A DNA stretch of 33,548 nucleotides from Deltaproteobacteria bacterium. GTDB lineage: Bacteria; Desulfobacterota; Dissulfuribacteria; Dissulfuribacterales; JALVPX01. This document shows, one piece after another, positions 9,449 to 31,700 of this stretch. Both the position numbers and the translations under genes were made by a program. Under the pieces are notes generated by a model, which searched no databases, was not told where the DNA came from, and was given only the letters and a program-made list of their open reading frames with translations. The first letter of the stretch is position 1, and each line of letters begins with the position of its first letter. The stretch covers positions 1 through 33,548 of the forward strand of contig JALVPX010000159.1 in NCBI GenBank assembly GCA_027031565.1. Reading direction: 5' to 3'.

Positions 9449-9826
9449 ATGAAGAGAGACGAGTTTATCAAGACGGTACAGAAAAAACTGGAACTAGACA
9501 GCAAAGATGATGCAATATGGATCACGGATACGATCTTGAAGACATTGTCTGAGCGCCTTACTGAACAGGAGGCCTTCGACCTTGCCTCCCAACTGCCCCG
9601 CGAGCTCAAGGAACTTGTAAAAGGTGTGCCAGATCATGTGATAAAGATGGATCGTCAGAAGTTCATTGCCAAGGTGGCTGAGCGCCTGGACGTCTCCCTG
9701 GAGGAGGCCGAAAGATATATCAAGGCCACCTTTTCTGTGCTGAAATCCGCGGTTACCCCTGGAGAGATAGAAGATGTCTTGTCCCAGCTTCCCAAAGACC
9801 TTGCAGGGCTTTTGGCAGAAGCTTAG
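9449..9826 (+). CDS. DUF2267 domain protein
   Basis: 125 aa with two helical repeats (FIKTVQKKL...ILKTLSERLTEQEAFDLASQLPRELK and FIAKVAERL...VLKSAVTPGEIEDVLSQLPKDL), characteristic of DUF2267. Confidence 0.75.
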   Translation: MKRDEFIKTVQKKLELDSKDDAIWITDTILKTLSERLTEQEAFDLASQLPRELKELVKGVPDHVIKMDRQKFIAKVAERLDVSLEEAERYIKATFSVLKSAVTPGEIEDVLSQLPKDLAGLLAEA

Positions 9827-10438: not shown

Positions 10439-12517
10439 ATGGATGGAAAAAAGCCTGAACTCCTGGCCCCTGCAGGCGACAAGAAAGCCTTTACTGCTGC
10501 ACTGGATGCAGGGGCAGACAGTGTATACATCGGGTTAAAGGCCTTTAATGCCCGTGCCCTGGCAAGGAATTTCTCACCCCGGGAAGCGGCAGACCTGGTT
10601 GCCTTTGCCCATGAACGTGGCAAAAAGGTCTTCGTTGCCATGAATGCCCTGGTAAAGGAGTCAGAGCTTGAACATGCAGTTACTACCCTTGCCCAGGTGG
10701 AGGCCATGCAGGCAGATGGATTGATCATCCAGGATCTCGGCATCCTTCATATAGCCCGCCGCTATTTTCCAGGCCTGCGGCTTCACGCCTCGACCCTCAT
10801 GACCATCCACAATTCCTACGGCGTAAAACAGGCACACCAAATGGGATTCAAAAGGGTTGTGCTTGCCAGGGAAATGACCATCCATGAAATAGAGGCAGCG
10901 GTTAAGGCAGCCCCAATAGAAATTGAAGTCTTCATTCATGGCGCCATGTGTTTTTGCTATTCAGGGCTTTGTCTTTTCAGCAGCTTTATGGGCGGCAGAT
11001 CTAGCACCAGGGGGAAATGCGTGCAGCCATGCCGCCGAAAGTACAAATGGGGAAGGCGGCAGGGAACATTTTTCTCTATGAATGACCTAGAGGCAGGGCC
11101 CGTGGTATGGAATCTGGCTGAAATTGGTGTGGACTCATTGAAAATTGAAGGAAGGCTCAGACCAGCAAACTACGTAAGGCATGTAGTCTCAGGCTACAGG
11201 ATTCTTCTTGACAGCCAGGCAGGAGATCCCAAAGCTGTTGAAGCAGCTCGCGACCATTTCCAGCAGGCCCTCGGGCGGCCGGGTTCCAAGGGTTTTTTCT
11301 TCACACCTCGGCCAAATGACCTGATTTCTCCGAGGCAGACCTCGAATACAGGACTCTTTGTTGGAAGGGTGAGCTCCATAAAGAGGAGATGTTTTGAGGT
11401 TACGTTGAAGGATCTTCCTGTAAACAAGGGGGATCGGATAAGGCTGGTCAATAAAAAAGATCAGCAACATTCCTTCCGCATAACAAGATTAGAAAATGAA
11501 CAACAGGGGAATAAGGTCATTATATTTCATGAACTTGATCAGGCATTTTCAAATGCCTTGGTCTTTAAGATCGACTGTGCAAGGAAGGGAAAGGATTTGA
11601 CCGCCGGGCTGGCTGGGAGACCTGGTTCGCAGTTTCGCTGGGATCGCACAAAAGCAGCAAATATTGTCCAGTCCATGGATAACAAGAGAGCAGGCAGGCC
11701 AACGGCGAGGCGGGCTGTATCAACGCCGCGGCTATGTGTAAGATTATCCAATATACACGACATCAAATGGTTCCACCGTGCGAACGTAGATGCTTTTCTG
11801 ATAAAGACGGCCCGCAGGAACATCCGGTCGTTTCAGAGCCTTAAGAAAATCCACAGGGATAAAATTGTTTGGTTTATTGAACCGATACAACATGAATCCG
11901 AGGCCCTTGAGCTTTTCAAGGCAGCCGTACAGCTATACAGGTCTGGTGCGGCCAGGTTCGAGGTGTCTAACCTAGGTCACCTCCAAATGCTTAAAGAGGC
12001 CCTTGAACATGTGAAAAGCCGGATCTCCAGTAAACAGCTCATCATTTATTCATCCCACCACCTTAATTTACTCAACTCCCGTGCCCTCATGGAAGCGGTT
12101 TCCCTGGGAATCGATCGCCCGCAATTTTCCATTGAAACAGACATGGAAAATGCTGAAAATGCCCTTTCCCGTTTCCGCAGCAAGCCGGTTGCCTTTACCA
12201 TTTTCAGCTTTCTGCCGCTGTTTCATTCACGCATGGGCCTCATGGATTTCAAGTCTTCATCAAGTGTCATCAGCCCCAAGGGTGAAACTGCCATATGGCG
12301 ATCCAGCAAGAAGGGCGGAAGACTGGTAGCCCCGGTGCCATTCAATGCCACTGGTCTGGCCGGCAGGCTAAGTGGCGCAGGCTTTGCGGCATGGGTGATC
12401 GATTTGACCAGTTGTTGCAGGGAAACAGGCAATCTTAAAGAGATTGCCAAACGCCTGGTGAACAACAGGCCTCTTCCAAAAGGCACATATTTCAATTTGG
12501 TAAAGGGGCTGGCTTAG
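10439..12517 (+). CDS. Long U32-family protein (peptidase U32 / O2-independent hydroxylase family) with a C-terminal extension
   Basis: PELLAPAGDKKAFTAALDAGADSVYIG...FNARA is the canonical U32 N-terminus. The Cys cluster CFCYSGLCLFSS...GKCVQPCRRKY is the U32 Fe-S-type motif. I prefer the ATG at 10439 over the TTG at 10433. Confidence 0.85.
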   Translation: MDGKKPELLAPAGDKKAFTAALDAGADSVYIGLKAFNARALARNFSPREAADLVAFAHERGKKVFVAMNALVKESELEHAVTTLAQVEAMQADGLIIQDLGILHIARRYFPGLRLHASTLMTIHNSYGVKQAHQMGFKRVVLAREMTIHEIEAAVKAAPIEIEVFIHGAMCFCYSGLCLFSSFMGGRSSTRGKCVQPCRRKYKWGRRQGTFFSMNDLEAGPVVWNLAEIGVDSLKIEGRLRPANYVRHVVSGYRILLDSQAGDPKAVEAARDHFQQALGRPGSKGFFFTPRPNDLISPRQTSNTGLFVGRVSSIKRRCFEVTLKDLPVNKGDRIRLVNKKDQQHSFRITRLENEQQGNKVIIFHELDQAFSNALVFKIDCARKGKDLTAGLAGRPGSQFRWDRTKAANIVQSMDNKRAGRPTARRAVSTPRLCVRLSNIHDIKWFHRANVDAFLIKTARRNIRSFQSLKKIHRDKIVWFIEPIQHESEALELFKAAVQLYRSGAARFEVSNLGHLQMLKEALEHVKSRISSKQLIIYSSHHLNLLNSRALMEAVSLGIDRPQFSIETDMENAENALSRFRSKPVAFTIFSFLPLFHSRMGLMDFKSSSSVISPKGETAIWRSSKKGGRLVAPVPFNATGLAGRLSGAGFAAWVIDLTSCCRETGNLKEIAKRLVNNRPLPKGTYFNLVKGLA

Positions 12518-12527
12518 GCGGAAACTC

Positions 12528-12668
12528 AAGGCGTTCTCTAAAAATTAGGATTTTTGTTCGAGGGCAAGGTGCACAAAAATAACCGCAGACATATTGTCGA
12601 TATTTCGAGGATTATTTTTGAGTGCAGTGCAGCTATTGGGCAAGAAGACAATTTTTAGAGACAGCCTT
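12528..12668. repeat. Small palindromic repeat element, copy 1 (~141 nt, MITE-like)
   Basis: Terminal inverted repeats aaggcgttctctaaaaatt and aatttttagagacagcctt. Inner hairpin gcacaaaaataacc (12571..12584) with ggattatttttgagtgc (12609..12625). A near-identical copy sits at 21253..21396. Confidence 0.85.
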
Positions 12669-12743
12669 AAATGTTCTGGCTGGAAGATGGGCAGGCGTTT
12701 TTGCGAAGTCCGCCTGATTGTCAATCGCCTGATCAAGCTACAT

Positions 12744-19545: not shown

Positions 19546-21210
19546 TCAGCGGCTTTCTTTGAGCAAACGGCTTGCGAAGGAGGCCGCCTCCTCGCCCTGA
19601 TCACCCAGCATTCGTTTAAGCTCGTCAAGGCGCTCACTTCCAGACAACACGGCAAGTGTTGAAACCGTTCTTTCACCTTCTACCCTTTTGGATACCTGCA
19701 AATGACAGTCTGCCAGGGCTGCGATCTGCGGAAAGTGCGTTATGGCTATAACTTGACCATACCCAGCAAGTTTTCGAAGTTTTGCGCCTACCCTGCCTGC
19801 TGCTTCACCTCCAATACCGGCATCTATTTCATCAAAGATCATGGATTCCATCCCAGCCTTTGCGGCAAAAACGGACCTAAGCGCAAGCATGACCCTGGAA
19901 AGCTCGCCGCCAGAGGCAATAGAGGCCAGAGGCTTTGGCTCTTCTCCGATATTTGGGGAAAAAACAAACTCCACCTCTTCCATGCCCTCTGATGTGACAT
20001 CCTCGACACGGGGTTTTTGGGGTATGTGAATATTGACCGCGAACCGGGCTTCATGGAACTGAAGTTCAGCAAGTTCCTTTTCAACGGCTTTGGCCAGGGT
20101 GCGGCTGCCAGCTATGCGCTTTTCATAAAGAATGCCGGCAAGCTCCAACAAACGCTCCTCGCTTTCCTTGAGCGCCTTTTCAAGATGAGCAATATCGTTT
20201 TCCATCTCTTCTAGCTCCCGCAGGCGCCGGGCACACATCTCCTTGTGTTCGAGCACGTCTTTCAGTTCAGGACCAAAGCGTCGTTTGAGCTGGCGTATGG
20301 CATAAAACCGTTCTTCCAGCTTGCTTAAAAGGGCTGGGTCGGCTGCCAGTCCGTTGATGTAATCCCTTATGCCATAGGCGACCTCCTGGATTTGATAAAC
20401 GCAAGATTCAAGTTCCTTTTCGAGCTGTTCAAGGCCTTGATCAAGGGCACACATTTTGGCCAAATGCTGCTGGCAATCGGCCAGAATCTCCAAAACGGCC
20501 CCCTTTTCCACATATAGTTTTCCATAGGCTTCCTCGGCCAGAGCGCGGAGCCTGTCAGCACTTTTCAGAACCTGTAATTTCTGTTCAAGCTGCAGGTCTT
20601 CGTCTTGGTGAGGGTCCACCGTTGAAATGGCCTCCATTTCTTTTTGAAGAAGTTCCATCTCCTCTTGCCTGCCCTGAAGGGCCTTTTTCTGCTTCTCAAG
20701 ATTCGCGGCAAGCCGTTTGGTCTCACGGAAACGGTCTTGAAAAGCTGCCAGTTGGCGTTCAAGTCCGCAGTAAGAATCCAACAAATGCCTGTGCCTGCCC
20801 CTGTTCAGGAGGTCTTGATACTCGTGCTGCCCGGAAATGGATAAAAGGCTGCCCATGATATATTTAAGGTTTTTTGCACTGATCATGCTGCCGTTGGCGT
20901 ATATCCGGCCGCGGCCTTCTCTGGGTATGATCCGCCTAACAATGAGTTCATCTTCTGCCTCCAGGCCTATTTCTTCCAAGAACCCTTGGGCAGGCCTAGG
21001 CAGGGCAAAAAGCGCTTGGATTTCTGCCTGTTTCGCACCCCTTCTAACCAGGGAGGGATCCGCCTTGGCACCCATGAGGAGTTGGAGGGCCTTGATAATC
21101 AGGGATTTGCCCGCCCCGGTTTCGCCGGTTATTGCAGTGAAACCAGGCCCGAGTTGTGCCTGGGCAGCCTTAAACAGCACAAAATTTCTGATATTTATCT
21201 CCAAAAGCAT
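19546..21210 (-). CDS. recN: DNA repair protein RecN
   Basis: MLLEINIRNFVLF...FTAITGETGAGKSLII is the Walker A region. A long coiled-coil middle follows. The C-terminus carries the SMC signature ASGGELSRVMLAL and Walker B MIFDEIDAGIGG. Confidence 0.95.
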   Translation of the reverse strand: MLLEINIRNFVLFKAAQAQLGPGFTAITGETGAGKSLIIKALQLLMGAKADPSLVRRGAKQAEIQALFALPRPAQGFLEEIGLEAEDELIVRRIIPREGRGRIYANGSMISAKNLKYIMGSLLSISGQHEYQDLLNRGRHRHLLDSYCGLERQLAAFQDRFRETKRLAANLEKQKKALQGRQEEMELLQKEMEAISTVDPHQDEDLQLEQKLQVLKSADRLRALAEEAYGKLYVEKGAVLEILADCQQHLAKMCALDQGLEQLEKELESCVYQIQEVAYGIRDYINGLAADPALLSKLEERFYAIRQLKRRFGPELKDVLEHKEMCARRLRELEEMENDIAHLEKALKESEERLLELAGILYEKRIAGSRTLAKAVEKELAELQFHEARFAVNIHIPQKPRVEDVTSEGMEEVEFVFSPNIGEEPKPLASIASGGELSRVMLALRSVFAAKAGMESMIFDEIDAGIGGEAAGRVGAKLRKLAGYGQVIAITHFPQIAALADCHLQVSKRVEGERTVSTLAVLSGSERLDELKRMLGDQGEEAASFASRLLKESR

Positions 21211-21252
21211 GGCAGCTGGAATATACTTTATTTTTGAAAAGTGAAAAACTTG

Positions 21253-21396
21253 AGGCTGCGTCTAAAAATTAGGATTTTTGTTCAAGGGCAAGGTGCATAG
21301 AAAAATAATCACAGACATGTTGTTGATATTTCGAGGATTATTTTTTTGAGTGCAACGCAGCCAACGTGGCAAAAAGACAATTTTTAGAGGTAGCCT
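21253..21396. repeat. Small palindromic repeat element, copy 2 (~144 nt)
   Basis: It aligns end to end with 12528..12668. Termini are aggctgcgtctaaaaatt and aatttttagaggtagcct. Differences are a few substitutions and 2 nt indels in A/T runs. It begins 42 nt upstream of the recN ATG. Confidence 0.85.
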
Positions 21397-21430
21397 AAAG
21401 TATTTCCTTGAAAGACAGAACTATTTTAAT

Positions 21431-21800
21431 AACTGCCCGTTAATGGGGTGGCTGGTGTGTCTCCTTCACCATTTTTAAAGGTCTGCGTGCGTCTGCAACG
21501 GCTCTTACATCCTCTTCACGTTAAAAATGGTTCAGGAGCCATCCCCAGCCGCCGTCCCCACGACTGTGCATTCAAAAAGCTTTTTATCCCGAAGGGTCTT
21601 TGATTCCCATGCCTTAAAATCGACGATACAGGTTTTTAAAAAGTCTTTTTGAAAGAAAAGCTGTTGGGTTTATACGCAGGTGCGGATCAGGTCTAGTGTG
21701 TGGCTCCTGAAGAGTTTTCGGCGTGAATGGGGCCAGGATGTGGAGTAGCTGCACGAAAAGAACTCTGAAAACTCTGAAGGAGACACCACTAGACCTTGTA
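21431..21800. repeat. Large foldback repeat, copy A (two ~105 nt hairpins flanking an AT-rich core); candidate MITE or structured ncRNA
   Basis: Hairpin 1 spans 21447..21553 and hairpin 2 spans 21690..21795. Hairpin 2 is a diverged reverse complement of hairpin 1. The unit has no ORF and repeats at 21851.. and 31341.. Confidence 0.85.
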
Positions 21801-21850
21801 AGGGAAATAATTATTTCACATTAATACGTGCTTTTGTGAGGTCAGTTTTT

Positions 21851-22205
21851 AACTGTCTTTAATGGGGCGGCTGGAGTGTCTCCTTCACCATTTTTAAAGG
21901 TCTGCCGTGCGACTGCCTAGGTTCTTCATTTTCTTCACGTTAAAAATGGTTCAGGAGCCAACCCCAGCCACCGCTTCCACGTATGTACCACCTAAAAGCA
22001 TTTTTTATCTCAAAGAGTCTTTGATTCTCATGCTATTAAAAAATGACGGCACCGCCCTTTAAAAAGTCATTTTAAAAGAAAAGCATTTTTGTTTGTACGC
22101 AAGGAGATTGAGTCTAAATAGTGGCTCTCGAATGGTTTTCGGTGTGAATGGGGCCAGGATTCGGTTTAATTTCGCCCAAACGAAAGTGGCTAAAGTTGCT
22201 GGTTA
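21851..22205. repeat. Large foldback repeat, copy B (tandem to A, 420 nt offset; 3' hairpin degenerate)
   Basis: Hairpin 1 (21864..21973) differs from copy A at 13 of ~111 hand-aligned positions. The core is recognisably homologous. The 5' arm of hairpin 2 is present (22110..22160) and the 3' arm is largely lost. Confidence 0.8.
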
Positions 22206-22345
22206 AGATCTGTTTTTGATGTCTTTCCTTGAACTTTAAGGTATAAACTGCGGTGGGATTGGCTTTTTACTGTTTAAAAAATTTCTTTTTATTCCGAAAG
22301 GTGGAGAAAGGCCTGTTATTGTCTAATCTCAGGAGGAATGACGTA

Positions 22346-24148
22346 ATGCGTAAGATTATGCGGCATAATTGGATCTTTCTATCCATGATTGTCATGGCGC
22401 TCAGCGCGCTCATTGTCATGGGTTCAATGTGTAAGGGCTGGGCCTCGGACAAATTTTCAGCCAAGGAGGCGCATTCCACAGATCCAGGTGATGCGGAAAA
22501 GATCTATTTGAGCGGGCGTATCTTGGACAGCCACAAAGAGCCTGTTCCTGATGCCAAACTTCAGATCTTGATCGATGGTAAACCGCGCCATATAAAATTG
22601 AGCGAACATGATCATGGAAGTTCCGACGATTTCGAATCTGCATCCGACGGCAGCTACCAGATAGTGCTTGAGCTGCCAAAAGGCGCCTTTGAGGCCAGCA
22701 AAGTGGAACTTTCTGTGTTCAAACCTAGTTTCAAGCCATACAAGCTTTCCATTGATCCGGCACAGCTGGCGAAAAAGGGACATGAATTTTATGGAAACTA
22801 CGATGTCATTTTGCCAAGATCAGTTGGTCCAGCCTTTTGGATAGCCACTGTCATATTTCTTTTGGCCTACGTTCTTATTTCTTTTGAGTTGCTGCACCGC
22901 ACAATTGCAGCAATGCTCGGGGCCTCACTTATATTGGTGATCAGCTATACCCTGGGGACTTTCAATCCAGAGTTTCATATCATGTCTTATGAACAGGCAG
23001 TAAAGGCCATCGACATGAACGTGATCTTTTTGCTCATGGGAATGATGGTGATCGTGGGCATCCTGAAACATACCGGGGTTTTCCAGTGGTGTGCATACAA
23101 GTCCTACAAATTGGCCAAGGGCAATGTAATGATGTTGAGCCTGATCCTCATGACCTTCACGGCAGTATCCTCAGCCTTTCTGGACAATGTCACCACGATG
23201 TTGTTGCTGACCCCTGTTACTATTGAGATTGCTTTATCCCTTTCCATTAATCCACTGGCTTTACTCATTCCAGAGGTGCTGGCATCTAATATAGGCGGTA
23301 CTGCAACACTGATAGGTGATCCTCCCAATATCATGATAGGATCCTATGCAGGTCTTACATTTGTTGAATTCGTGAAAAACTTGGCACCTATATGTGTGCT
23401 TTCCATGGCCGTGGTTTTTGTCATGACCAAACTTATTTATGGCAAAGAATATCAAGCAGCCAAGGTTGAGGACATTGAAGGTTTTATTGCAAAGCTCAGG
23501 GAAGAATACAAAATTACTGACAGCACTCTGCTCACCTTCGGTATGATAATCATGGCCATCGTGATTGGCATGTTCCTGGCACATGGAGTGCTTCACATGG
23601 AGGTAAGCATTGCAGCCCTTTTTGGAGGGGCGGTGCTCTTTACTTACGGCCTCTTAACAAAAAAGATAGATCTGCTGGAACTTATCGAAAAGGATATAGA
23701 GTGGCCCACGCTTCTATTTTTCATTTTCTTGTTTATCCTGGTAGGCGCAGTTGAGGAAGCAGGGCTTTTGGCCATCGTGGCCGACTGGGTCCTTGGTGTA
23801 TCGAAAGGCAGTCTTGTCGCCTCCATTTGTTTGATCTTGTGGGTTTCAGCCTTCATGAGCGCCTTTGTGGACAATATTCCGTTTACGGCAACCATGCTGC
23901 CCATTGTGGCATACCTCACCAGGGTAATCCCCGGAGCAGAAAGCGGCGTCTTGTGGTGGGCCCTTGCCTTTGGCGCATGTTTTGGAGGCAATGGAACCAT
24001 TATCGGCGCCAGTGCCAATGTGGTAACCGTTGGCATTGCAGAGGCCGCCGGCTACCCAATGAAATTTTTCGGTTTTATGAAAGTTGGAATGGTTTGTATG
24101 ATATTGACCGTGGCCCTAGCAAATGTGTGGCTGCTGCTTTTCTATTAA
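22346..24148 (+). CDS. ArsB/NhaD-superfamily (SLC13/CitMHS-like) anion permease with an N-terminal exported beta-sandwich domain
   Basis: The ATG at 22346 is preceded by AGGAGG. A signal/anchor is followed by a CarboxypepD_reg-like segment (IYLSGRILDSHKEPVPDAKLQILIDGK...DGSYQIVLELP...VFKPSFKPY), then about 10 transmembrane helices with the GDPPNIMIGS and FGGNGTIIGASANV hairpin motifs. Confidence 0.85.
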   Translation: MRKIMRHNWIFLSMIVMALSALIVMGSMCKGWASDKFSAKEAHSTDPGDAEKIYLSGRILDSHKEPVPDAKLQILIDGKPRHIKLSEHDHGSSDDFESASDGSYQIVLELPKGAFEASKVELSVFKPSFKPYKLSIDPAQLAKKGHEFYGNYDVILPRSVGPAFWIATVIFLLAYVLISFELLHRTIAAMLGASLILVISYTLGTFNPEFHIMSYEQAVKAIDMNVIFLLMGMMVIVGILKHTGVFQWCAYKSYKLAKGNVMMLSLILMTFTAVSSAFLDNVTTMLLLTPVTIEIALSLSINPLALLIPEVLASNIGGTATLIGDPPNIMIGSYAGLTFVEFVKNLAPICVLSMAVVFVMTKLIYGKEYQAAKVEDIEGFIAKLREEYKITDSTLLTFGMIIMAIVIGMFLAHGVLHMEVSIAALFGGAVLFTYGLLTKKIDLLELIEKDIEWPTLLFFIFLFILVGAVEEAGLLAIVADWVLGVSKGSLVASICLILWVSAFMSAFVDNIPFTATMLPIVAYLTRVIPGAESGVLWWALAFGACFGGNGTIIGASANVVTVGIAEAAGYPMKFFGFMKVGMVCMILTVALANVWLLLFY

Positions 24149-28353: not shown

Positions 28354-28695
28354 TTACTCATCCTGCCCGATTAAATCGAGCCATTTTTCCACCAGCTCCT
28401 TGAATTCTCCATGCTGCAAGGCAATTTTCTGGCCCTGCCCTTCGTAGAGCGGTTCGATGACCACCTGGTCATGATTCATGGTGACCGCATAGGCATTTCC
28501 TACGAATTCAGTGGCTATTGGGCCGGTTTCGGCCTGGTCGAGCAGACGCAGGAGCTCTCTTGCCATGGCACTGTCGGCCTGTATGTCCGTCTGCAGAAAC
28601 ATGGCCGCGCTTTTCATGTCTCCATTAGCCTCTACCCTAGGCATGCCTTTTTCATCTATAAAAAATCTTGGTTTTTTTCTTTTTCCTTTTGGCAT
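28354..28695 (-). CDS. Small acidic cytoplasmic protein, candidate partner or immunity protein of the upstream EndoU-like nuclease
   Basis: The ORF lies directly downstream of and overlaps the nuclease gene. The start is uncertain: ATG 28695 gives a 44 nt overlap, and ATG 28644 lies 7 nt after the nuclease stop. The sequence is acidic and has no signal peptide. It faintly resembles UPF0231/YacL-like proteins; unverified. Confidence 0.5.
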   Translation of the reverse strand: MPKGKRKKPRFFIDEKGMPRVEANGDMKSAAMFLQTDIQADSAMARELLRLLDQAETGPIATEFVGNAYAVTMNHDQVVIEPLYEGQGQKIALQHGEFKELVEKWLDLIGQDE

Positions 28696-29194
28696 TGTTA
28701 CGATCCTTGATATAGACAGGAAAGGCTGTATTAATATTCCCCCTCTTGTTGAGATAACCTTGGATGACAAATCCACTGCCAGACGGGCCTATCCACGGCT
28801 GTTTCCGCGGATGTTCCCTGTGCTTGTAGGCGTGGAGTATGGCCTTTATCACTTCTTTGCGGCTCATCTTGTCAGGGAAAAAGGAGGAGAATTTCTGTTT
28901 CCATCTACGAGTCCTCTTGTCCCATATTTCCACCCGGGCAGTATAGACCCCAGCCCTGTTGGGTGGAGAGACTATTTTCACCATCCTTGCTGTCTCAGGG
29001 TCACGCCCCCCTGGCCTTGAGTGAAACCCCACAGGCCTTCCTTTTCTGTTGATCTCGCCCTTGAAAATATGGGTCAAATTGATTTGGGGCCTTGTGCGGC
29101 TCCACTCAGATCTTGCACATATAGAGACAGGCAGCAAAAGGATGCCGAGGGCCAGAAGGCATGCTGGCAGCAGCCACTTGTTTCTGAAATTCAT
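28652..29194 (-). CDS. Secreted EndoU-like (EndoU_bacteria family) ribonuclease
   Basis: The ATG at 29194 is preceded by GGAG. Signal peptide MNFRNKWLLPACLLALGILLLPVSICA. Then THIFKGEINRKGRPVGFHS, GVYTARVEIW, KQKFSSFFPDKMSRKEVIKAILHAY and GFVIQGYLNKRGNINTAFPVY match the His/His/Lys-containing blocks of bacterial EndoU domains as I remember them. Confidence 0.65.
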   Translation of the reverse strand: MNFRNKWLLPACLLALGILLLPVSICARSEWSRTRPQINLTHIFKGEINRKGRPVGFHSRPGGRDPETARMVKIVSPPNRAGVYTARVEIWDKRTRRWKQKFSSFFPDKMSRKEVIKAILHAYKHREHPRKQPWIGPSGSGFVIQGYLNKRGNINTAFPVYIKDRNNAKRKKKKTKIFYR

Positions 29195-29261
29195 GGTTCC
29201 AACTCCATCCCGATGCAACAATTGATGGCATCAATATATCAAACGGGATTTATGCTGTCTA

Positions 29262-31340: not shown

Positions 31341-31700
31341 GTTTAAGAGGGCTGCTGGGGGTCTCCCTCACCATTTTTATAGGGTAGCCGTGCGACTGCC
31401 GAGTCTCTACGTTCCATTTCCGATAAAAAATGTTTCAGGAACCACCCCAGCAGCCATTTCCACGCCTGTGCATTCCAGAAGGATTTCATACGGCGTTGAA
31501 ATTTATTCCGTGTTATTCAAAATAAAGATAAATTTTTTCTTTTTTGAAGTGCCTGATTTGGAATTTGAACGCAAATGCGAAATGGGTTCAGTGTGTGGCT
31601 CCTGAAGAGTTTTCATCGTGAGATGCAGCACAAGGTGCAAGAAGCCGCACGAAAAGAACTATAAAAACTCGGAAGGAGACACACACTGAACCCTGTAATA
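31341..31700. repeat. Large foldback repeat, copy C (solitary, more diverged)
   Basis: Hairpin 1 spans 31350..31455 and hairpin 2 spans 31584..31693 (14 bp perfect basal helix gggttcagtgtgtg/cacacactgaaccc). The core is AT-rich. The architecture matches copy A, with compensatory changes in both basal helices. Confidence 0.85.

Follow-up and report, generated by a model that had tools for sequence, protein, structure and literature searches.

A repeat unit of ~360 to 420 nt, present in three copies in the 33,548-nucleotide stretch of DNA that we analyzed (the window), is best explained as a lineage-specific, nonautonomous palindromic intergenic repeat that combines a REPIN/BIME-like architecture with the size and AT-rich core of a MITE; we put the probability of this reading at about one-half. 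Two of the copies, A and B, lie head to tail in a gap of 1135 nt that is bounded by recN (minus strand, ATG at 21210) and, on its 3' side, by a gene whose product is a transporter of the CitMHS family (ATG at 22346; Pfam E value of 1.7e-80), and the third, C, lies apart from them. By analogy with known palindromic repeats, an enzyme whose gene lies elsewhere probably recognizes the unit in its hairpin form. If this reading is true, the unit is an unusually large and modular palindromic intergenic repeat, three times REP size, and provides a natural case, from an uncultured, deep-branching lineage, in which to ask what recognizes hairpins of this kind and by what route they spread; if it is only decaying selfish DNA, its interest is local.

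Organization of the unit in the window

Each unit is made up, in order, of a head, a hairpin (H1, ~107 nt), an AT-rich core (~135 nt), a second hairpin (H2) that is an inverted copy of H1, and a tail. The features located in the window are as follows.

Positions 21431 to 21850: unit A, directly abutting unit B (21851 to 22240).
Positions 21431 to 21446, plus strand: head of unit A, AACTGCCCGTTAATGG; the 5' edges of B and D have it too, and those of C and F keep it weakly.
Positions 21447 to 21553, plus strand: hairpin H1 of unit A, from its fold (-42.9 kcal/mol), its covariance-model score (115.5 bits), and pair counts.
Positions 21554 to 21689, plus strand: AT-rich core of unit A, from its GC content (0.35 to 0.40) and the six-copy alignment.
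Positions 21690 to 21795, plus strand: hairpin H2 of unit A, an inverted paralogue of H1 (64% identical as the reverse complement) with the basal stem GGTCTAGTG/CACTAGACC.
Positions 21796 to 21850, plus strand: tail of unit A, the spacer before B; it is also kept at a second tandem junction (contig L021, variant G and then the head of F).
Positions 21851 to 22240, plus strand: unit B, with a head, an intact H1 (21866 to 21972), a core, and a decayed H2 (about 22111 to 22215).
Positions 31341 to 31700, plus strand: unit C, the most diverged full copy, with H1 (about 31350 to 31455), a core, and H2 (about 31584 to 31692).

The tandem pair and the third copy at 31341 to 31700 had been recognized in the preliminary description of this DNA, and both were confirmed by repeat finding and blastn. 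Direct-repeat families D1 to D4 and D8 are spaced at 419 to 423 nt, the step from A to B, and families D1 to D3 and D7 are spaced at 9474 to 9896 nt, the step to C; in blastn alignments, A is 78.7% identical to B over 305 nt (E value of 3e-66) and 69.9% identical to C over 369 nt (E value of 5e-32). The 420-nt period is absent from the output of Tandem Repeats Finder because there are fewer than two copies at ~78% identity. The preliminary description had missed a second repeat in the gap, R2 (21246 to 21404), the conserved head AACTGYCYKTTAATGGGG, and the tail of ~55 nt at the tandem junctions. The head is shared at unit edges, as is a motif ending in ACCYTGTAA after H2, and in copy D, which has a unique 5' flank on contig L009, similarity to the other copies ends upstream of AACTG.

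The gap had also been described as free of ORFs, and no credible one was found there: the longest ORF within A or B has 51 aa and the longest within C has 71 aa, and the frames are not conserved between copies. A small core-encoded protein was considered and rejected, the frames not being conserved and the candidate ORFs being 7-aa stubs. A protein search with a pseudo-protein assembled from all stop-free six-frame segments returned nothing at an E value of ≤1, which is a weak result, since a 48-aa ORF called in L012 was also missed.

Local hairpins and their conservation

Both hairpins of unit A fold in the manner first proposed, H2 with an energy of -50.6 kcal/mol and a covariance-model match of 98.2 bits on the minus strand. 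At the base of H1 in this unit, the stem GGTGGCTGG/CCAGCCGCC is followed by a GUG/CAU stem, a U-C mismatch, and a CUCCU/AGGAG stem, and the upper part consists of a UC × UC internal loop, an 11-bp A/U stem, a CGUG/CACG stem, and a variable apical loop of ~28 nt. The inverted blocks by which H2 had been related to H1 are exact (21457 to 21468 against 21775 to 21786 and 21531 to 21541 against 21701 to 21711; repeats I4 and I7). The segment between the hairpins is AT rich, as had been noted, with a GC content of 0.35 to 0.40 compared with 0.50 to 0.57 in the hairpins; in the alignment of six copies it contains two A5-N2-3-T5 palindromes, and it ends, directly 5' of H2, in a small covarying hairpin (CGCAGGTGCG in A, CGCAAATGCG in C, and GGCAAAGCC in D). 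H1 of unit B scores 121.5 bits and is 88% identical to H1 of unit A, a value that matches the 13 differences originally counted between them. The 3' hairpin of B had been called decayed, and here its 5' arm is recognizable, its 3' arm is lost, and the hairpin covariance model finds no match. The two hairpins of C score 92.6 and 100.3 bits. We also observed that the 3' arm of this unit type's H2 contains, in copy A (21761 to 21778) and likewise in E and K, a perfect 9-nt tandem duplication (two copies of AACTCTGAA).

When four H1s are aligned with two reverse-complemented H2s, the result is a hairpin of 31 pairs, nine of which are changed on both sides (5/500 in shuffles). Paired cells make up 93.5% of this alignment, compared with 82.7% in column shuffles (0/500), and pairing falls to 40 to 49% once the partners are slid. 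The double-sided changes divide stems of the H1 type from those of the H2 type: the basal stem is GGCTGG/CCAGCC in the former and CTAGTG/CACTAG in the latter, and the second stem is ACCATTTTTAA/TTAAAAATGGT in the former and AGAGTTTTC/GAAAACTCT in the latter. One further compensatory change, G-C to T-A in copy C, falls within the H1 type. Because the changes that distinguish the two types keep each local hairpin and break the stem pairing between H1 and H2, the conserved structure is a pair of local hairpins and not a long foldback. The unit had previously been interpreted as a foldback with composite inverted termini; that H2 is an inverted and diverged H1 holds, and RNAfold can pair the two, but the compensatory changes break this pairing. 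For the whole unit, RNAfold prefers the long H1:H2 foldback (z = -4.9 on either strand), and the summed energies of local H1, core, and H2 come within 2 to 6 kcal/mol of it.

Elements that are invariant, or nearly so, in both hairpin types comprise GTCTCCYTC, CGTGC, TTCAGGARCCA, the UC × UC internal loop, and the U-C mismatch. As far as sequence can indicate, the maintenance of mismatches inside a covarying stem suggests that what is recognized is a single strand in folded form and not a symmetric site in duplex DNA. Wobble pairs have no strand preference, with 8 cells on one strand and 5 on the other. Identity ranges from 72 to 91% among H1s and from 77 to 95% among H2s, compared with 60 to 65% between H1 and the reverse complement of H2, and the H1s of different copies cluster with H1s and the H2s with H2s. 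Since identity is higher within types than between them, the duplication that produced H1 and H2 is older than the spread of the family, and it is the whole unit that is copied.

A comparison of orthologous A regions from two strains with an overall identity of 98.3% revealed 13 differences; these fall in the pre-head, the head, and the apical loop, and the stems and motifs of H1 are unchanged. H1 is intact in all five copies in which it is visible, whereas H2 is decayed in two of five (B and K), and this asymmetry could reflect selection on H1 alone. Stem-type covariation, retained mismatches, the pattern of strain-level substitution, and the intactness of H1 point to something more than junk.

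Distribution, the companion repeat R2, and assembly junctions

The same locus was found in Logan assemblies, in two metagenome assemblies from ENA, and in the NCBI MAGs GCA_027034575.1 and GCA_054009395.1. Over about 60 kb of sequence from one species, there are at least seven distinct copies; the window accounts for A, B, and C, and other assemblies add D, E, F/G, and K. Copy D, whose H1 is 88% identical to that of A, is assigned to another locus because its 5' flank is unique. Copy E consists of a core and H2 and sits beside a copy of R2; variants G and F form the second tandem junction (L021), at which a variant tail is followed by a new head; and copy K, located 4.8 kb to the left of the window (L024), has an intact H1 and an H2 with a mutated 5' arm. 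Copies A and B lie between divergent gene starts and copies C and K between convergent gene ends, those flanking C being the 3' ends of the NamZ and phosphoribosyltransferase genes. All units in a stretch of ~46 kb (A, B, C, and K of L024) share one orientation, with H1 on the left; they represent three independent loci, and the observation is not significant. No direct repeat is common to the sequences that flank A, B, C, D, E, and K, and the outer boundaries are fuzzy, with no target-site duplication definable.

The nearest named relatives by RecN, in Thermodesulfobacteriaceae and Dissulfurimicrobium, are 45 to 48% identical and three others are 65 to 68% identical, values which indicate a deep-branching, Desulfobacterota-like lineage. 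The recN loci of the three closest relatives (L014, L015, and L016; 65 to 68% RecN identity; 52 kb) contained no copy of the unit by blastn, nhmmer, or the hairpin covariance model; the relatives lack the unit at recN, but synteny there is not conserved. Comparisons of the unit with plasmids and phages by blastn gave no match. An exact scan of representative genomes for TCTCCNTCACCATTTTTANAGG gave five matches, all due to chance and inside coding sequence; a 21-nt motif had no match in JGI metagenomes, and a motif scan of IMG/VR likewise had none. A three-block hairpin pattern, which recovers all five intact hairpins of the window, gave three matches in JGI metagenomes, all of them chance matches in GC-rich coding sequence. 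The original statement that the unit belongs to no Rfam family held, with no match in the window at the gathering score and only miRNA, snoRNA, and plastid-UTR noise at an E value of ≤10, and a domain search bore out the reported lack of transposase, integrase, and reverse transcriptase genes in the window. Neither the window nor the rest of the ~60 kb of species sequence retrieved contains a RAYT.

R2 is a long hairpin of ~155 nt, unrelated to the main unit, and occurs in the window at 21246 to 21404, in the same gap and directly upstream of unit A, and at 12522 to 12675. These two copies are 84 to 91% identical, and a further variant accompanies copy E (L020 and L023). The best Rfam score for R2 is noise (Plastid-psbA-1, E value of 0.24). 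A homologue is present in the relative with 68% RecN identity (L015, 5975 to 6135), so R2 would be older and more widespread than the main unit. A separate observation concerns the recN leader together with the left edge of R2b (AATTTTTAGACGCAGCCTCAAGTTTTTCAC, recN strand; window positions 21211 to 21270), which is conserved upstream of recN in the relative (L015, 7118 to 7192); an arm of R2 may thus overlap a leader or regulatory sequence of recN that has been conserved.

The unit and R2 fragment every short-read assembly of this organism and give rise to chimeric joins in MAGs. Contigs L001, L007, L008, L009, L020, L021, L024, and L027 systematically end in, or are chimerically joined through, the two repeats, and in the L009 chimera H1 and the core of copy D are joined to H2 of copy A. 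Copy E with its R2 neighbor lies downstream of an MGMT gene in L020 (8861 to 9162) and L023 (9085 to 9473). In the window (12480 to 12680), L024, and L027, the stop codon of a U32 peptidase gene is followed directly by R2, with no E, and when the left junction of E was sought through variants of the U32 peptidase gene, the gene again ran directly into R2a without E. The R2 of L020 and L023 has the look of a hybrid formed from two copies, and an assembly chimera inside R2 is as likely an explanation for the presence or absence of E as a difference between strains. At the start of L023 (positions 1 to 337; MAG GCA_054009395.1), the core is inverted and joined at a shared 12-mer, TTCAGGAGCCAC, an inverted microhomology; identical H1s stand in opposite orientations on both sides of the core, and the far junction is not that predicted by inversion. 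To judge from these junction sequences, a foldback chimera of assembly or library origin would fit better than a site-specific inversion, the alternative being a real inversion or an inverted duplication.

Comparison with known elements and alternative explanations

The features that the unit shares with REPINs, as set out in passages of PMC3337134 and PMC3116915 that define them, and with BIMEs, for which our comparison draws on general knowledge, include two alternating palindrome subtypes, which can be likened to the Y and Z palindromic units, clustering head to tail with two kinds of linker, an intergenic, noncoding, and lineage-specific distribution, and the maintenance of hairpin structure rather than of stem sequence. 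The REPIN/BIME arrangement is seen in A, C, and K, where H1 is followed by a core of 135 nt and then by H2 in inverted orientation, and in the tandem junctions A-B and G-F. The modules are 107 to 111 nt long, whereas REPs measure 20 to 40 nt, and they are separated by a spacer of 135 nt; this spacer and the lack of a RAYT in the sequence retrieved set the unit apart from REPINs. The foot of a REP carries a conserved GTAG or CGTC tag, as given in part of PMC3733652; the sequence 3' of H1 is CGTC in A, CGCT in B and D, and CATT in C, and H2 has nothing equivalent.

Resemblance to MITEs (Correia/CREE, ERIC, RUP, Nezha, and the Tn3-derived TIMEs) lies in the length of 350 to 420 bp, the long terminal inverted repeats, the AT-rich noncoding core, the dispersed multiple copies, some of them decaying, and the folding into long hairpins. 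H1 and the reverse complement of H2 qualify as terminal inverted repeats, with 60 to 65% identity over ~105 nt and exact blocks of 11 to 12 nt. In contrast to MITEs, the unit has no target-site duplication that we could find and no known parent IS, it forms atypical head-to-tail tandem arrays, and its termini are large hairpins with independently covarying stems, which lowers the end-to-end similarity to 60 to 65%. Like attC sites, including those of CALINs, the modules are imperfect hairpins within the range of 57 to 141 nt, putatively recognized by their structure, in which certain unpaired bases are conserved and the apical loop varies, and they are clustered with no integrase nearby. They differ from attC in having no RYYYAAC/GTTRRRY core sites (their bases are GGGGYGGCTGG...CCAGCCRCC and RGGTCTAGTG...CACTAGACC), in alternating in orientation where attC sites point one way, and in having no cassette ORFs between them. 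Judged by its sequence, the unit falls outside the definitions of both REP and attC. NIMEs consist of RS blocks flanked by dRS3 inverted repeats of ~20 bp; compared by description, they resemble the present arrays in being intergenic, bounded by inverted repeats, and mixed with other families (here R2 beside A and E), but there is no sequence relation and the hairpins here are ~107 nt long. Among other candidates, a Tn3-type inverted repeat was rejected because only the GGGG start is in common, a parS or hix site because the resemblance is to a partial half-site, a CsrA sponge because the GGA motifs are located in stems, and an SD/anti-SD riboregulator because no start codon follows AGGAG.

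The preliminary description had left the choice between a nonautonomous mobile element and a family of large structured RNAs; we consider the former, as a nonautonomous repeat, more probable than the latter. On the reading as a palindromic repeat, the H1 and H2 modules would act as extruded or single-stranded hairpins and would be the recognition sites of a structure-specific protein encoded elsewhere, in the manner of RAYT with REPs and REPINs, TnpA with IS200/IS605 ends, and IntI with attC, and the family would have spread by mobilization in trans combined with local tandem duplication. The pattern that supports it is one of dispersed copies and head-to-tail arrays in which copies decay (H2 in B and K), and the use of both divergent-start and convergent-end settings resembles that of selfish intergenic repeats. 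Secondary effects on the host of the kind associated with BIMEs, namely, transcript-end stabilization, termination, and nucleoid-protein binding, are possible by the same analogy. Against the palindromic-repeat reading, the flanks yield no target-site duplication, the assemblies yield no clean pair of filled and empty sites, and the window has no gene for a transposase, RAYT, or integrase. In addition, a copy identity of 70 to 90% denotes greater age and divergence than a recent MITE burst typically has, and an intact H1 beside a decayed H2 is unlike what is predicted for a two-ended transposition substrate. A more speculative version, which we regard as unlikely, takes the ~107-nt hairpins, with their invariant mismatches and motifs, as substrates of an undescribed structure-specific system, either a new class of hairpin-recognizing mobilization of single-stranded DNA (a "giant REPIN" served by an enzyme of its own, of the HUH type or another) or a new family of paired hairpin RNAs with H1 under host selection.

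The same covarying stems and conserved mismatches would also suit structured noncoding RNA genes, in which each ~110-nt hairpin or the whole ~350-nt unit is an RNA, the internal loops are putative protein sites, and the copies are paralogous sRNA genes. Strain-level substitutions that avoid the H1 stems, the intactness of H1 in every visible copy, and the reading of the 2 × 2 loop on the H2 strand as written, where it becomes a tandem G-A, a common RNA motif, agree with this explanation. We nevertheless regard it as unlikely, since the occurrence of the same motifs in both orientations in each unit would give a single transcript one sense and one antisense module, the wobble pairs are without strand bias (8 versus 5 cells), no sigma-70-like promoter or intrinsic terminator is common to the copies, their relation to flanking genes is not consistent, Rfam offers no match, and homologues were found in one species only, an unusual situation for a functional RNA whose own copies diverge by 25 to 30%. 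The setting of C and K between convergent gene ends, together with the A-tract/T-tract palindromes of the core, recalls instead host-domesticated cis elements, that is, transcript-end stabilizers, bidirectional terminators or insulators, or gyrase or nucleoid-protein sites, which would have spread only by duplication and recombination. The tandem palindromes of alternating orientation, separated by linkers of two types, mirror the architecture of BIME-2 that Gilson and Bachellier reportedly described. This explanation would seem rather improbable: no T-run follows the hairpins, the terminator scan revealed no common signal, A and B occupy a promoter region and not gene ends, and decayed copies are tolerated. 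Inverted repeats around an AT-rich segment of ~135 to 160 bp could also denote invertons, in which a global invertase would flip the core by recombining the H1 arm with the inverted H2 arm, and the L023 core is inverted at its 12-mer. This is very improbable; the far junction in L023 is inconsistent with inversion, the same H1 on both sides has the look of a foldback chimera at a contig end, no promoter was found in the core and no recombinase gene in the window, and the copies between convergent genes (three counted) would leave a switchable promoter without a target.

Elsewhere in the window, a gene for an EndoU-family nuclease (28354 to 29221, minus strand; Pfam E value of 2.2e-26) adjoins a small overlapping ORF that has no Pfam domain, and the two may constitute a toxin-immunity pair.
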